From the NCBI GenBank assembly GCA_039801885.1, contig JBDRVN010000001.1:1-64000 (forward strand): a DNA stretch of 64,000 nt, read 5' to 3'. A program made the position numbers. Position 1 is the stretch's first letter, and the number at the start of each line of letters is the position of its first letter. The DNA is from a candidate division WOR-3 bacterium. Lineage in GTDB: Bacteria > Hydrothermota > Tepidihabitantia > Tepidihabitantales > DTDR01. Shown piece by piece: positions 24,001 through 30,000 of the stretch.

Positions 24001-27000
24001 AAGAAGAAAGGCAAACTTTATAATTTTCAAAAAGTTATCAAAATTGAAATCAAAAATTCAAAAGTAATTGGGTTAAAAACCAATAAAAATGAATATTTTT
24101 CTTCACCAATAATTATCAACTGTGCTGGACCTTTTGCTAAAGAAGTTGGGAAATTAGTAAATTTAGATATTCCAATAGAACCAGAAAGACACGAAGCAAT
24201 TGTGACAGAAAAAATTGATAAATCTTTTCCCTGTATGATTGTTGATTATCGAGAAGACGGTTGCTATTTTGTTCAAAAACATACTACAGGAAATATTGTT
24301 GGTTGTTATACACCAATACCTAATATCCCAGGTTATTCTTTAGATTCTTCTTTTGAATTTTTTATTGAAATGTCAAGAAGAATGGTAAGAATAATCCCTA
24401 AATTAAAAGAAATAAGAATTTTACGCCAATGGGCAGGAAGCTATGAAATGACTCCGGATGGTAATCCAATTGTTGGTGAAACCCCGATTGAAGGATTTTA
24501 TCTAAATTGTGGAATGTGTGGGCACGGTTTGATGTTTGCTCCAGCGATTGGTAAAGCTTTGGCTTATTATATTGTAAAAAAAGAATTTATATTGCCTTTA
24601 AAGGATTTTTCTCTTTTTCGAGATTTTTCTAAAAAAGAAGTAATGAAATAAATATTGATTTTTATGAAAAAAATATTTATAATAACTAATTAAGGAGGAA
24701 AAATGGCTTATTATATTTTATTAACAAAATTGACTGATGAAGGAAGAAAAACTTTGAAAGATTATCCACAGAGACTAAAGGAAGTAAACGAAGAAGTAGA
24801 AGAGATGGGAGCAAAGATTATTGCCCAGTACGCGATTCTTGGCGATTATGATTTTATTAATATTTTAGAAGCACCGGATAATGAAACGATTGCTAAAATC
24901 TCCACCGAACTTGGTTCAAGAGGAACAATTCAAATAACTACTTATGGCGCAATTCCCATCGATGATTTTTTAAAAGCAATTAAAAAATAGGAGATTTTAT
25001 GATTTATTTTTTATTAATCAGTTTTATATTTAATCAGCAATTAATTTTAAACGGTAATTTTGAGGATAGTTTAAACTATTGGCAGATTAGTAGAGGAACA
25101 GGAACTACTGATTTAAATGTATCTCCTTATCATCATCCCGACCCAGATAACGAAGTTTATCTCTACAAATATGATGCTGATTATATAAAAATATTTCAAA
25201 TAATTGAGATCCCTCATATTTATTTAAATTTTTCTTTTAGTGGTAAATTATTGGCAACCGAACTTAATCCTTCGGCTCCTTATTTTGCTTTTTCATCAAT
25301 AATTTTAGAATATCTGGATGAAAACGAGAATTATCTTGGCCGCACAATGTTTATTTATAAGACTCCGCATTGTTCTTTGACTAATACCTCTAATCAACAC
25401 CTTATTGAAATTACCGATACTCTTTGGGACGATTATAATTTAAATATTTTTGAAGAATTTGCCAATTTACCAGCAATAAATCCTTTTGCGGTCAAAAAAA
25501 TAAAAGTTGTTCTTTTTGATTCCACAAATGGTTGTTGAGCAGGTCACTGTTGGGCGAAGGTCTTCGCCGACGATATTTCTTTAATTCCAGTTTTTGGCGT
25601 TGTTGCTTATCGTTGGTTAATTGATGATAATCCACCGAGAGGTAACGGTGACGGAATTATTAATCCTGGTGAAGAGATAAATTTGCCTATTTGGGTAAGA
25701 AATTATTCTTCAAGACAAGTTAATAATATTATTGGTAAACTTAACTTACAATTTCCTGATCCGAATGTTACTTTAATTGATAGTGTAAAGAATTTTGGTA
25801 ATATTTTACCCCAGGATTCAGCATTTACTGGTGAGGAAGGATATCTTTTCCAAGTAGCAAATAATTGTACTAATGGCTATCGAATTAATTTTATTTTAAA
25901 ATGTGAAGACGAACTTGATAGTTTTTGGCTTTCTTCTGTTTATTTAAAAGTGGGAACTGCTCTTTTTAGAACCGGAATTGTTTATGCCTTGGATACACCA
26001 CCGGGAAATAATAACCGAAGATTAGACCCGGGTGAAGAATGTGCGATTGCTATTCAGTTAAGAAATATTGGCTACGGAAATGGCTATAATATTTATACAA
26101 TTCTAAAATCAGCCGATACCAGTTTGAGAATAATCGATTCAATTGGTATTTACGGAAATATTCCGGCCGGTGAAAGCAGTATGAATTTATCTAACCTTTA
26201 TTATGTTTATGCTAGTCCAAGAATTATTCCTGAAACACCTATACCTTGTACTTTGAAAATTTATGGTGATAATTTTTCTCAAATTCTACCATTTATTATT
26301 ACGGTTGGTGAATTAAGACCTTGCGATCCAGTAACCGATGGTTTTTATTGGGTTTATGAAGATATTGATACTTTCTATTCGGAATGTCCAAATTATGAAT
26401 GGGTTGAAATAAGAGGTCAAGGCGTGCGTTTAAATTTAGGAGATGATGAAACATCGGTAATTGATTTACCAGGTTACTTTGGGTTAATTAAATATTACGA
26501 TACCTATTATAATCAAATATCTATTTGTTCTAATGGTTGGGCAGCAATTGGTTATACTACGAGAGCTGATTATTCCAACACTCCTTTACCTTCCCAAATA
26601 CCAAATCAACTTGCTTGTTCTTGGGATGATTATTATCCACCAATCGGTGGCGGTATTTGGTATTATTTTGACTCTTTAAATCATCGGTTAATTATTGAAT
26701 GGGATTCTGTCCATTATTTCTCACCAAGAGACCAGTGGGATAAATTTCAGATTATTATTTATGATACAACTGTAAGAACAATTAATGGTAATAATGTTAT
26801 CTTTTTCCAATATTATTCTAATAATTACTATCTCTCTAATACTGTTGGTTTTCAAAATCTAACAGGGACTTCTTTTATTAACATTCTTTATAACACTCAA
26901 ATTTCTCGAGGTTTTGATAGTTTAAGACAAGGAAGAGCAATTAAAATTACTCCTAACCCTCCTCAGGTATCAATTGAAGAATCTTCTAATAAAGAAATAA

Positions 27001-30000
27001 TAAGAAAAACAATTATTTCCCAAAAGAAAAAGATAAAATTCTACTCGCAAAAAGATAAAGAATATACTATTTTTATTTACAATCTTAATGGTCAGTTAAT
27101 AAAAAAAGAAAATAAATATTTTAAAAAAGGTTGGCAAACCTATAATATTGATAAAAAACTACCAAAAGGCATCTATCTTATCTTTTTAAAAACTACTGAT
27201 GAAAAAATCTCAAAATTTAAAATCCTAATGATTGAATAATGGAAGAAACAAATAAGACAAAAGAATTATTAAAAGCAATAAAAGATGGGAGGATTGATGA
27301 AATCCTTGCAAATATTAGTTATTCTGACATACCGATTTTAGAAAAAGTTGGTGTTCTTCTCAATATCTATTCCGATCCCAATTATGCCAAAAAGATATTT
27401 GAAAGAATTCTTGATTTAGACCCAGAAAATCTTTCGGCAAAATATTCATTAGGTTTTGCCTATTTTCGGTTAGAAGATTGGAACAAAGCCCTTTTCTATT
27501 TTCAAGAAGTTCTAAAAAAAGACCCAACCAATAGCCCCTGCTGGCAGGAAGTAGGAATAATTCAAATGAAAATAGGAGAATATGAAAAGGCATTAGAATC
27601 TTTTCACAAAGCGATTGAATATTCGCCTTTTGATGCCCTTCCTTATTTTCAATTAGCTAAAGTTTCTTCCCAATTACAAAATTATGGAGAGGCTTTAGAA
27701 TATATTAACAAAGCAATTGAATTAAGACCAAAAGATATAAAAATCATTAAAGAAAAAGCGAATATTTTAATTAATTTACAAAAATATGAAGAAGCCCTTG
27801 CTCTTTTACAAGAAATAATCGAAGAAAACCCTAACGATTTGGATGCACTCTTAAATATCAGTTTTATCTTTTGTCAACTTAAAAAATATGATTTAGCATT
27901 AAAGTTTGTTAACCAAGCAGTAAAATTAGCACCAAACGATTCAAAGGTATTGGTGACAAAGGGATATATTTTAGGTAAATTAGGAAGAATAAAAGAGGAA
28001 CTAAAATATTATGAAAGAGCAACAATAATAAATCCCAATGATTGGCAAGCCCATTTTAACCAAGGTGTTTTATATTACGAACTTCAAGAAAAAGAAAAGG
28101 CATTAGAATCTTTTGAAAGGGCATTAAAATTAAACCCCGATTCTTCTGAGGTTCATCATAATATAGGAATTTTATATTTAGAGAAAAAAGAAGGAGAAAA
28201 GGCGTACTATCACTTATTAAAAGCCGTTCAACTAAATCCAAAGATTGGTAATTATTGGTATTCCTTAGGATTGCTTTATTTAGAAACTGGGGATGCCAAA
28301 ACTGCTTCCCAATGTTTTGATGAAGGTTTAAAATATGACCTCAATTCCTATTTATTATTTTCTGGTAAAGCATTAGCATTAAAAGAAATGAATCGCTTAG
28401 AAGAAGCATTAAGGTTTATTAATGAAGCAATTACAATTAATCCTAACTACTTCCAATTGTGGTATGATAAAGGCGAAATCCTTGAAAAAATGGGAAGAAA
28501 AGAAGAAGCCCAAGAATGTTTTAAAAAAGGAAAGGAATTGGTATAATTTATATCTTGACAATAGTTGCTTTTTCAGTGGTATCGAATACAAATTATTTTT
28601 AAAGAGATTTGTTATAAAGATAGGAACGTATCCCCTCTGTCTTTTTGTTTGTCTTAGCAAGTGTTTTATCCATAATCTTAATTATTATCTTAGTGTAGAA
28701 CTTTTTAGATATATTAATTATATTAATATTGAACTTTTGAAGTTATTTATTAAACAACTTTATAAGTGTCTTATTAGAGAATAACTTAATTTTACCGATA
28801 ATAATATTTTTTATATTAACTGCCAGGGAAGTTATTATATATCATATATCCCATAATCTATTTTCTTTTTTCTTTTTCTAAAAAATAGACCCATTATTAG
28901 ACCAATAACAAAACCTCCAATATGGGCTGACCAAGCAACACCGGAAATTCCCATTGAACTATATAATAATTGTAATAGAATCCATATACCCAGGAAAAGG
29001 AAGGCAGGAACCAAAGCAATTCTTAGAAAGAAACCAATTGGTATTAACGTTAATATCCGAGCATTAGGAAATAAAATTAAATAAGCACCAAGAACACCGG
29101 AGATCGCACCAGAAGCACCAATCATTGGAACTTGGGAATATGGATTTCTTAAAATATGAAGAAAAGAACCTGCTAAACCGCTTAAAAAATACATAACAAA
29201 AAACCAAAAATGACCCAATATATCCTCAACATTATCACCAAATACCCATAAATAAAGCATATTACCAAGAATATGGATAAAATTACCATGTAAAAACATT
29301 CCAGTAAATAAAGTAAGAAGTCTTTCACCGTTAATTATCGAAACTGGAATTATCCCATATTCTAAAATAAAATCTCTTAAATAAGTGCCCAGTGTTAATT
29401 CATATAGAAATATTAAAACATTAATTATTAAAATTAAATAAACAAAAATAGGTCTCTTTAATGAAGGAATATCATCTCTTAATGGTATCATCTTTTTCAA
29501 TTAACACAACACAAAAACAACTTACCACATCTTTAAAGTTAAACCCTTCCCAGGTCTTTGCTTTAATTCCGATATTTTCTTTATTTACATTTAGGATTTT
29601 TAAAATATTTTCTTTCATCTTGGAAATATAGGGCATAATCTTTGGTCTATCAATTATAATAACCGCATCAATATTTCTTATTTTATAACCTTTCTTTTTC
29701 ACCTTTTTGTAAACTTCTTTTAAAATAATTGAAGAAGAAAGCCCTTTTATCTTTTCATCGGTATCTGGAAAATAATACCCAATATCGTATTCACCGATTG
29801 AACCTAAAAGGGCGTCACTTAAAGCATGAAAAAGTATATCAGCATCGGAATGGCCGGATAATCCATAAGAAAAAGGAATCTTAACACCACCAATTATTAA
29901 CTTTCTTTTCTTTCTTAATGGATGGGAATCAAAACCTAAACCAATTCTTATCTCTTTCACATAATTATCAACTTAAATAGGTCTTCTTTTCCTTTACTTT

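Follow-up and report, generated by a model that had tools for sequence, protein, structure and literature searches.

A predicted exported selenoprotein family with selenocysteine in a lectin-like jelly-roll head

The window analyzed here, 64,000 nucleotides of contig JBDRVN010000001.1 from a candidate division WOR-3 bacterium, contains a locus with two possible readings. Translated with genetic code table 11, it is cut in two at an in-frame TGA, into 24999–25538 (179 aa) and 25683–27239. Translated with TGA as U, it is one reading frame of 746 residues that ends at a TAA stop; the TGA is the only one in the frame, and it lies at codon 180 within the motif GC-U-AGHCW. Upstream, the frame is bounded by an in-frame TAA at 24981–24983, and there is no start codon between that TAA and the ATG. 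Does the TGA end a short gene, or does it encode selenocysteine (Sec) in a long one, and what would the Sec do? We give a probability of about 0.9 to the reading as one selenoprotein gene with UGA codon 180 read as Sec, and with somewhat less assurance we hold the whole explanation, identity and function together, to be likely. One gene with Sec at this codon was also the proposal of the initial annotation, and it is borne out by the single TGA, the frame open beyond it, the hairpin and the Sec machinery. Translation would go on for 566 residues after the Sec, and the product would be ordered as a signal-like N-terminus, a jelly-roll head, two Ig-like domains, a beta module and a type IX secretion (T9SS) sorting tail (Table 1).

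Table 1. Positions of the proposed gene and its parts within the window
Feature	Position	Strand	Basis
GGAG ribosome-binding site	24990..24993	+	5 nt upstream of ATG, read directly
Whole selenoprotein gene	24999..27239	+	frame open beyond TGA in 77/77 copies
N-terminal hydrophobic segment MIYFLLISFIFNQQ, presumed atypical signal peptide	24999..25040	+	helix 2–11 in AF2 model
CBM-like beta-jelly-roll head (predicted), residues ~15–197	25041..25589	+	AF2, Foldseek, VIA
TGA as selenocysteine (probable), residue 180, loop between last two strands	25536..25538	+	column conservation, AF2
Candidate SECIS hairpin, 6-bp stem, GGUC loop 25559–25562	25553..25568	+	within A-K-V-F-A codons, last strand
Two Ig-like beta-sandwich stalk domains (predicted), residues ~226–332 and ~347–436	25674..26306	+	AF2, Foldseek, paralogues
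Conserved beta-rich module, weakly NIDO-like, residues ~451–651	26349..26951	+	alignment with paralogues
T9SS type-A C-terminal sorting domain (putative), residues 678–746	27030..27236	+	PF18962/TIGR04183 near cut-off, beta-sandwich in model

Conservation of the in-frame TGA

A search of the phylum found the head domain in 108 of 272 genomes. All 150 matches listed contain an in-frame TGA (149 with one, 1 with two); these are the best 150 of 258 matches, the remaining 108 being weaker. The TGA falls in the same column in 30 of the first 30 loci aligned and likewise in all 77 domain copies fetched from 69 loci (74 distinct), where it is followed by an open frame. The conservation reported earlier (the same column in 30 of 30 copies, a TGA in 78 of 81 phylum matches) is therefore seen again. 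Seventeen representatives lack the TGA but extend across the site; two of them have Cys at the Sec column (P0044 and P0065) and one has Ala, the rest being variable, which agrees with the earlier description of a family that is almost always Sec and rarely Cys. A genome may carry up to 9 paralogues, and gene rows with five selenoprotein genes occur. Judged by these sequences, the head domain appears to found a large selenoprotein family in uncultured hot-spring and sediment bacteria. A contig from an RNA library, belonging to a relative about 92% alike, spans the TGA and lends weak support to read-through.

The hairpin downstream of the TGA and the selenocysteine machinery

The hairpin GGCGAA-GGTC-TTCGCC begins 14 nt past the TGA. 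Its GGUC loop would recruit SelB with Sec-tRNA(Sec) during translation. The apical loop of Escherichia coli fdhF, the model for bacterial selenoprotein genes with a SECIS in the coding region, also reads GGUC. Like those genes, the present one has a UGA and, 16–37 nt downstream, a small apical loop whose first positions hold G, and the genome has SelA, SelB, SelD and tRNA-Sec. Different from fdhF, it encodes an unrelated protein, and its minimal 6-bp stem is locked to five beta-strand codons, visibly restricting the protein sequence. The published bSECIS model describes a loop of 3–9 nt, a stem of 4–16 bp, G in the first two loop positions, a spacing of 16–37 nt and an MFE of at most -7.5 (PMC13188914, Fig. 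2 legend). Our hairpin falls within it, with a 4-nt GGUC loop, G at loop positions 1–2, a 6-bp stem and a spacing of 20 nt (17, 23 or 26 nt in variant copies). Folded in a 40-nt context it reaches -8.9 kcal/mol, and as the bare 16-mer -7.3; single-sequence MFE folding of a 71-nt segment did not choose it (z -0.59).

Of the 74 distinct copies, 73 keep a GGUY loop and at least 5 of the 6 pairs; in the remaining one, a 6-bp stem is capped by an AGUU loop. In total, 98.2% of cells are paired and 4 of 6 pairs are compensated; the score was matched in 0 of 500 shuffles, and slid controls gave 26–63% of cells paired. The initial annotation had given 99.4%, 4 of 6 and 0 of 500. The genome has 31% GC and seldom uses the codons involved, GCG-AAG-GTC-TTC-GCC; their joint probability under its own codon usage is 7e-5. 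Because the hairpin is built from the last-strand codons A-K-V-F-A, the RNA pairing dictates the residue pair that flanks the valine: K/F in 41 copies, R/L in 15, E/S in 13, E/F in 3, R/F in 1 and Q/C in 1 (n = 74). The initial annotation had listed E/S, K/F and R/L, and not the three rarer pairs. Hairpins of a comparable kind are present in other TGA-bearing genes of the genome, namely SelD and two Omp28-like genes.

The machinery for Sec insertion is encoded in the same genome, as had been noted. The tRNA-Sec scores 72.7 bits and is also called SeC/tca by ARAGORN; SelA (564.8 bits), SelB (366.8 bits) and SelD (320 bits, with its own TGA) are all above cut-off. The family is present in 101 of 122 SelA-positive versus 7 of 150 SelA-negative genomes, counts that overstate independence in that the genomes are related. 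The same link had been found earlier with SelB (34 of 46 positive genomes, 2 of 105 others); modest differences from the earlier figures arise because the samples differ. When five SelA-negative exceptions were re-examined, three had a tRNA-Sec above 70 bits.

These observations bear on two other readings of the codon. If the TGA were a true stop, the locus would represent two genes, a pseudogene or a programmed truncation to a 179-residue product. Gene callers do split it there: 118 of the 150 best representatives in the database run no further than the Sec column, and the 11 close database hits are all 179–227 aa in size, the four named ones each being called 'hypothetical protein'. (That representatives end at this column had been reported, with a count of 132 of 150; the ending was found again, and the count by our own criterion is lower.) However, the frame goes on with conserved coding sequence in 77 of 77 copies, the last strand of the fold, which is invariant, is made of the residues right after the TGA, no separate start or signal for the downstream part is present before 25683, and a stop would leave both the hairpin and the co-occurrence with the Sec machinery unexplained. 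We consider a true stop very improbable. That the TGA stands for one of the standard amino acids, through near-cognate suppression or a reassigned code, is if anything more improbable still. In its favour is one single-contig relative (G133) that has TGA-bearing family genes, only a fragment of SelA and no tRNA-Sec above cut-off. Yet TGA is an ordinary stop in this genome, ending 173 of 720 long ORFs, and the gene's single TGA never leaves its column and always has a SelB-type hairpin behind it.

The head domain, its scaffold and export

The head is predicted to be a jelly roll of the carbohydrate-binding-module (CBM) type. Its AF2 model has a pLDDT of 91.7 and a pTM of 0.87; Foldseek returned CBM16, CBM11 and CBM61 (CBM16 2zex, E 3.7e-7), and the VIA matches include 5w6h (Z 15.5), 8xmz (Z 13.7) and 2zew (Z 12.8). 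A CBM-like fold had been proposed from a model with pLDDT 93.6 and Foldseek matches to CBM16/11, and both analyses converge on it. In the model, the Sec sits in the last beta-hairpin loop of this lectin-like head (residues 177–183), between strands 167–176 and 184–196. Residues A186, V188, A190 and D191, which follow the TGA, are invariant and belong to the last strand of the confident fold; W28, Y105 and W143 are invariant as well.

Scans of the heads of 29 members against Pfam and NCBIfam gave no hit below E 0.002 and none to any selenoprotein model, as expected from the earlier statement that no family library knows the domain. PF02018 (CBM_4_9) matched weakly in 5 of the 29 (best E 0.013, below significance), and the best hit of a PDB profile search was a GH31 C-terminal module (E 0.0011). 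The likeness to CBM16, CBM11, CBM61, CBM4 and CBM_4_9 is one of fold (Foldseek E 1e-7 to 1e-5, VIA Z 10–15), together with an N-terminal NGDFE and a C-terminal DD motif. Different from these modules, the head reaches significance with no CBM model, its TM-scores are 0.43–0.56, and no listed CBM match is described with Sec; any sugar binding by the Sec head is putative.

DUF1573, which occurs among exported selenoproteins, is a beta-sandwich. As is predicted for the present family, other exported selenoproteins, for example those of the DUF1573 (UGC), FCYXU-type TonB-dependent receptor and DsbA/DsbG-like types, have their Sec outside the cytoplasm, and the UGC or CU dyad in them is similar to the head family's C-U (PMC13188914). 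They are different domains, and the head hits none of them in Pfam or NCBIfam at E up to 0.1. As the initial annotation had claimed, the family is also absent from the 119 selenoprotein families and subfamilies in the complete Table 1 of that paper.

Behind the head, the C-terminal 546 residues (stalk and tail) share 43–51% identity with the S8, C25 and M14 peptidases of the genome, in line with the scaffold assignment made earlier. T9SS cargo peptidases (S8, C25 gingipain-like and M14) thus have the same scaffold with a catalytic head, whose place the Sec jelly roll would occupy here. The AF2 model of these 546 residues has all-beta stalk blocks with pLDDT 75–88, for which Foldseek gave generic Ig-like or macroglobulin-type matches of low TM. 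The module at 451–651 is modeled with low confidence; it has many invariant columns when aligned with paralogues, one of which (L070) matches Pfam NIDO with 26.5 bits. The T9SS tail scores just below cut-off with both PF18962 (25.5 bits, cut-off 27) and TIGR04183 (22.1 bits, cut-off 23), and paralogous tails score above it (27.3, 30.5 and 32.9 bits). In this genus the N-terminus is short and hydrophobic, without a basic n-region; in relatives, a classical signal peptide or a lipobox stands in its place. The genome has two PorU-like genes (256–261 bits versus a cut-off of 420), and its SprA match reaches only 26 bits. From the presumed signal peptide and the putative T9SS tail, we infer that the protein would be exported, probably to the cell surface. 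Nor is this combination of Sec, export and T9SS scaffold confined to the head family in these genomes, as neighbouring Omp28-related selenoproteins carry T9SS tails as well.

Possible roles of the selenocysteine

In 17 genomes of two GTDB families, the gene of an Omp28-related selenoprotein with a thioredoxin-like fold and a UxxC motif lies within ~3.5 kb on the same strand; the flanks of 4 such loci were scanned, and a TlpA-like WCKMC redoxin follows each time. This linkage is new in the present analysis. The Omp28-related protein (NCBIfam NF045500; 'hypothetical protein GOS_C', UxxC, Table 1 of PMC13188914) is exported, as is predicted for the head family, and found in the same genomes, and some members have T9SS tails; it differs in its fold and motif, and the Sec head gives no hit to NF045500. 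This genome has two copies of it. Within the 64,000-nt window, neither the Omp28-related nor the TlpA-like neighbour is present; the neighbours here are a ferredoxin/BFD/FAD-oxidoreductase set, a GYD protein and a TPR protein.

The Omp28-related and TlpA-like neighbours in the relatives point to an extracytoplasmic redox role. We give close to an even chance to the Sec selenol acting outside the cytoplasm as a reactive and probably redox-active centre. In its cycle the selenol would form a selenenylsulfide with a nearby Cys, at position -1 or at another conserved column, and an extracytoplasmic thiol/selenol relay of the TlpA-like CxxC redoxin and the Omp28-related UxxC selenoprotein would keep it reduced. 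Each of the 74 copies has at least one other Cys in the head; 43 have it at -1 and most of the rest at another conserved column. No loop residue besides Sec is universal (Cys -1, His +3 and Cys +4 differ by subfamily, and loops such as GUGGPW, CUGATE and GUGGGH occur), so that one single redox mechanism is not proven.

The same loop would allow the Sec to act as a ligand, binding a soft metal or metalloid or capturing sulfur or polysulfide at the cell surface through C-U-x-G-H-C. Copies of this protein's own type do have Cys, Sec, His and a second Cys in a span of six residues, several 'CU' families (MbdU, SaoL and HgcA among them) are labelled metal-binding or organometallic (Table 1 of PMC13188914), and hot-springs metagenome is the label of the sequencing runs in which at least half of the words sampled from the stretch occur. 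We regard this role as rather unlikely, given that the His and the flanking Cys vary across subfamilies and that the conserved neighbours are of thiol-disulfide oxidoreductase rather than metal-transporter type. Least probable, at long odds, is a plain carbohydrate- or polymer-binding module by which the cell or its peptidases are brought to a substrate, with a structural Sec, for example in a Se-S bridge at high temperature. Such a module would suit the CBM-type fold with its NGDFE start and DD-containing last strand, the weak CBM_4_9 hits and the invariant W28, Y105 and W143. With such a bridge, Cys should be an acceptable substitute at the site; only two of the 17 TGA-less representatives have it, and the family is nearly absent where SelA is lacking. 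Sec is also costly to insert.

Returning to the redox-active Sec, a bolder form of it is an obligately selenium-dependent surface head, outermost in a relay from the TlpA-like redoxin through the Omp28-related UxxC protein to the Sec head. Given up to nine paralogues per genome and the gene rows with five selenoprotein genes, the family would be the main reason why the phylum keeps its Sec machinery. We put this forward as possible, on balance unlikely. If true, a lectin-type jelly-roll fold would be a first among selenoproteins.

Known prokaryotic selenoproteins are mostly thioredoxin-fold or metal-cofactor enzymes. For nearly all of them, Cys homologues far outnumber the Sec forms (2026 review, PMC13188914). 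The head family departs from that picture in its lectin-like fold, its predicted export, probably to the surface, and its presence in up to nine copies per genome; it also departs in almost never having Cys and in being nearly absent from related genomes without SelA. Because gene callers end the gene at the Sec codon, wrong halves of real genes would account for hundreds of database entries. The small codon-locked SECIS offers a clean natural example of RNA structure constraining protein sequence, and the linkage to the Omp28-related and TlpA-like genes leads to a hypothesis, open to testing, of extracytoplasmic selenium chemistry in uncultured bacteria.

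Reading frame and hairpin of the selenoprotein gene

The window gene is a real, well-supported selenoprotein gene (see the table below). GGAG precedes its ATG at 24999, and a longer N-terminus is impossible because one in-frame TAA is located five codons upstream. In a table 11 reading, the gene is reduced to 24999–25538 (179 residues) and a start-less remainder, in which the earliest possible start is at 25683. The fetched set of relatives comprises 69 loci with 77 domain copies, 74 of which are distinct. In 77 of 77 copies the TGA lies ∼15 residues before the domain end and the frame is open beyond it. 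In a six-frame search of the phylum, all 150 matches listed (the best 150 of 258) contain in-frame TGA, one in 149 of them and two in the remaining one.

Genes and sites of the selenoprotein gene, its upstream neighbours and two selenoprotein gene rows of relatives
Feature	Position	Strand	Description
Upstream row	window 22823–24990	+	Four tightly packed genes: 4Fe-4S ferredoxin, BFD-like 2Fe-2S, DAO-type FAD oxidoreductase, GYD-domain
Whole selenoprotein gene	window 24999–27239	+	746 residues when TGA is read as U
Sec TGA, residue 180	window 25536–25538	+	Sole in-frame TGA; motif TNGC-U-AGHCW
Hairpin GGCGAA-GGTC-TTCGCC	window 25553–25568	+	14 nt past the TGA
Locus L103	G151:C1:1470000–1478500		Five consecutive selenoprotein genes, then redoxin: two Omp28-related UxxC (T9SS tails), two CBM-like Sec, one Trx-fold UxxC lipoprotein
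Locus L111			Five selenoprotein genes in a single row, then redoxin: three CBM-like, one Omp28-related, one Trx-fold

The stem of the hairpin is formed by the codons of Ala-X-Val-Y-Ala. In 30 aligned copies, its six named pairs are formed in 98.2% of cells and both-sided changes are present in four of the six; none of 500 shuffles matches the paired fraction, the covariation score or the number of compensated pairs. When the 3′ partner was slid, the pairing fell to 26–63%. Six of six pairs and a GGUY loop are found in 70 of the 74 distinct copies; three copies form five of the six pairs, and one (locus L077) combines a 6-bp stem with an AGUU loop. Counted from the U of UGA, the distance to the loop start is 23 nt in 50 copies, 20 nt in 18, 26 nt in 4 and 29 nt in 1, with steps of whole codons throughout. 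The outermost pair, formed between third codon positions (those of the preceding codon and of the second Ala codon), covaries too (GC 58, AU 6, GU 4, UA 1, CG 1; unpaired 3). Given the peptide and the codon usage of the AT-rich source genome, the joint probability of GCG-AAG-GTC-TTC-GCC is 7e-5.

The initial annotation had limited X/Y to E/S, K/F and R/L. This is correct for 69 of the 74 copies (K/F 41, R/L 15, E/S 13), whereas it does not hold for the E/F (3), R/F (1) and Q/C (1) copies, in which the pairing relies on G-U wobble or is compensated differently. Of the 17 representatives that lack the TGA and run through the site, only two have a canonical pair (R/L) and two more have E/F; because such representatives rarely keep the canonical pairs, the X/Y restriction comes from the RNA and not from the fold.

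The hairpin agrees with all four constraints of the bacterial SECIS model quoted in the review PMC13188914: 4-nt loop, 6-bp stem, G at loop positions 1–2 and a spacing of 20 nt. Within 40 nt counted from the UGA, the hairpin is included in the MFE structure, with an energy of −8.9 kcal/mol (−7.3 for the bare 16-mer). Single-sequence folding of 71 nt chose another fold (z −0.59), and an Rfam scan of 25450–25650 (E up to 10) produced chance matches only. Comparable small-loop hairpins with G are present in SelD and in two Omp28-like TGA genes of the source genome.

Sequencing runs containing at least half of the sampled words of the stretch are labelled hot-springs metagenomes. One DNA contig covers the whole stretch with 8 differences, and another study contributes a 151-nt contig identical to 25455–25605. 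One RNA-library contig, ∼92% alike, spans 25496–25645 across the TGA; such presence in an RNA library is no proof of transcription.

Selenocysteine machinery and the decoding of UGA180

The source genome (G000) is 1.56 Mb in size, on 70 contigs, 91% complete and 31% in GC. It contains SelA (564.8 bits), SelB (366.8 bits), SelD (320 bits) and one tRNA-Sec (72.7 bits), which ARAGORN likewise reported as SeC/tca. SelD (locus L015, C23:825–1736) is itself a selenoprotein; it has an in-frame TGA (CPGUASK) and a hairpin ∼20 nt past it.

By six-frame search, the 204-residue head was found in 108 of 272 phylum genomes, and SelA (E up to 1e-30) in 122 of 272. The family is present in 101 of the 122 SelA-positive genomes compared to 7 of the 150 others, counts that are not independent, as the genomes are related. 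One of these seven, G015, has a weak match only (E 1e-4), and five of the remaining six were re-examined. G223, G145 and G221 have tRNA-Sec of 71–78 bits, the latter two also SelA fragments at contig ends; in G128, only a marginal tRNA match (48.1 bits) was found. In G133 (single contig, C1), both the family and the Trx-fold selenoprotein genes contain TGA; SelA is represented by a C-terminal fragment alone (70 bits), and no tRNA-Sec above the cut-off was found. The assembly of G133 may be faulty, or its Sec system may be decaying. In four relatives (G113:C48, G162:C37, G159:C59 and G147:C233), selA and a family gene share a contig, 4–10 kb apart.

The initial annotation had assigned Sec to this TGA, with a covarying hairpin behind it and the Sec machinery in the same genome, and all three claims are borne out. 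TGA is an ordinary stop in the source genome, terminating 173 of 720 long ORFs. In a 29-member alignment, A186, V188, A190 and D191 just past the TGA are invariant, and because they make the last strand (184–196) of the confident model, a TGA-terminated product would miss part of the fold. A true stop is unlikely, and so is read-through with a standard residue. Comparative evidence shows that SelB-type recoding of UGA180 is directed by the hairpin inside the ORF, a mechanism of the standard kind.

Head domain, C-terminal scaffold and predicted export

In the AF2 model, the head (residues ∼15–197) is an all-β sandwich (pLDDT 91.7, pTM 0.87), with Sec in the loop 177–183 between the last two strands. 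Foldseek search against the PDB identified CBM16 (2zex, E 3.7e-7), CBM11, CBM61 and CBM4, and also C-terminal modules of phage tailspikes and the sugar-binding domain of Fbs1, with TM-scores of 0.43–0.56. An independent structure search gave 5w6h (Z 15.5), a porphyran-binding CBM (Z 13.7) and CBM16 (Z 12.8). The head of the window protein has no match among the Pfam and NCBIfam models; for the heads of 29 members, nothing significant was found in the two libraries (best CBM_4_9, E 0.013, in 5 of 29). Profile search of PDB sequences with the head reached E 0.0011 at best. The head is CBM-like and absent from both libraries, as claimed.

Among the 74 copies, no loop residue other than Sec is universal; position −1 is occupied by Cys (43 copies), Gly (26), Ser (3) or Asp (2), and at least one further Cys is present in the domain of every copy. 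Cys occupies column 95 in 23 of 27 copies without Cys at −1, compared to 3 of 47 copies with it. The two Cys positions could be alternative selenenylsulfide partners; the pattern could equally reflect two clades.

The C-terminal 546 residues (stalk and tail) share 43–51% identity over the full length with the C-terminal parts of six source-genome proteins, whose heads are Peptidase_S8, Peptidase_C25 with propeptide or Peptidase_M14, two of each, in agreement with the proposed scaffold common to secreted proteases. Remoter paralogues of this part include more C25 peptidases and one Kelch protein. Its AF2 model is of moderate quality only (pLDDT 66.7); it shows a pair of Ig-like sandwiches, followed by a β module of low model confidence and a sandwich at the end, and Foldseek returned generic Ig-like matches.

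The signal peptide and the T9SS tail remain predictions, as in the initial annotation. In this genus, the N-terminal hydrophobic stretch is short and lacks basic residues; relatives have classical signal peptides or lipoboxes. The tail is just below both T9SS cut-offs (25.5 versus 27 and 22.1 versus 23 bits); the paralogous tails are above the cut-off. Search for the T9SS machinery in the source genome gave two PorU-like genes, below cut-off, and a 26-bit match only for the SprA model. It is reasonable to infer from these sequences that the protein would be exported by T9SS and displayed at the surface on the peptidase scaffold. Elsewhere in the window, 29957–30988 (−) encodes a 343-residue protein whose sole family match is a weak T9SS tail (22.7 bits).

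Family members, gene neighbours and possible function

At an E cut-off of 1e-3, profile search of 1.84 billion representatives identified 367 family proteins; 196 remain at 1e-10. Among the best 150 of the 367, 118 stop at the Sec column (84 on Cys, 24 on Gly) and 17 continue through the site; the rest comprises 9 shorter fragments and 6 other cases. Database copies do end at the Sec column, although the earlier count was 132. In the 17 run-through proteins, the column holds Cys in two (P0044 and P0065), Ala in one (P0007) and unrelated residues or gaps in the others, consistent with a family that is almost always Sec and rarely Cys. The full-length P0007 (637 residues, high-GC) keeps C..GHC and has lost the hairpin-compatible pair (ARAIV). 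A word-seeded search, which needs shared 5-residue words, found no full-length database protein (410–1306 residues) with the head; it returned 11 truncated proteins of 179–227 residues, four of them named, all as 'hypothetical protein', and one of the 11 labelled 'candidate division WOR-3 bacterium'.

Among the matches listed and the fetched loci, the commonest architecture is ∼640 residues in length; others are head plus tail (∼300 residues), head only (216–219 residues) and forms of 1161–1669 residues. Copies per genome reach at least nine among the matches listed. The head-only forms L073:1379–2027 (−) and L075:1940–2597 (+) end 18–22 residues past Sec and have a lipobox-like N-terminus, so the Sec jelly roll also exists without stalk or T9SS tail. 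In line with the initial annotation, which had found the family absent from the 119 families of PMC13188914 Table 1, that table includes no CBM, jelly-roll or T9SS protein. By title, the literature on selenoproteins and T9SS, Sec and CBM, Sec and WOR-3, exported bacterial-SECIS genes and novel metagenomic selenoprotein families gave nothing relevant besides this review; for selenoproteins and Cloacimon, the sole title was a 2017 paper on tRNA-Sec prediction. The window gene founds a large family that is in no list checked (Table 1 of PMC13188914, Pfam and NCBIfam).

We scanned 116 neighbouring ORFs in 39 loci. In L073, L103, L104 and L111, family genes are followed by a 180-residue ORF of no family and then by a TlpA-like redoxin with a signal peptide and a WCKMC motif. 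Reading upstream of the 180-residue ORF through TGA gives a lipoprotein of 236–239 residues with the thioredoxin-type motif FFTDD-U-xFC; upstream 'Omp28' genes also run on through TGA (EG-U-GSC) and end in T9SS tails. These Trx-fold and Omp28 genes score 25–50 bits with NF045500, the Omp28-related selenoprotein model listed as family GOS_C in Table 1 of PMC13188914, versus a cut-off of 200. In each of the four loci the CxxC redoxin comes after the selenoprotein row, whose genes would be cut at TGA by gene callers. Comparing the coordinates of two phylum searches, among the matches listed, we found the family gene and the Trx-fold gene on the same strand within ∼3.5 kb in at least 17 genomes, 14 from GTDB family f14 and 3 from f2.

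The source genome has two Omp28-like TGA genes, C43:5936–6607 (L112) and C29:19592–20269 (L113), neither beside the window gene. Each contains one in-frame TGA (EGUGSC and AGUPFC, respectively) with a hairpin downstream, and they score 39–56 bits versus the NF045500 cut-off of 200. In the window, the GYD-domain gene ends 8 nt from the start of the selenoprotein gene, and a TPR protein is also among the neighbours; no functional link was found for them, and in relatives no link between the upstream four genes and the selenoprotein gene was noticed. Five tRNA genes (Lys, Arg, His, Arg, Pro) are located at 48608–49007 (−).

Gene context suggests that the selenol may be a redox-active nucleophile, kept serviced by an extracytoplasmic thiol/selenol relay, a reading to which we give a probability of about 0.45. 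Sec may instead serve as a soft-metal or sulfur ligand, a role that we hold to be less likely. That Sec is structural and the head a plain binding module would suit the CBM-like fold, and is more doubtful still. For the family, its fold, its probable export route and its near-total dependence on Sec are unusual, and the redox role suggested by the gene context would be a lead for its function.
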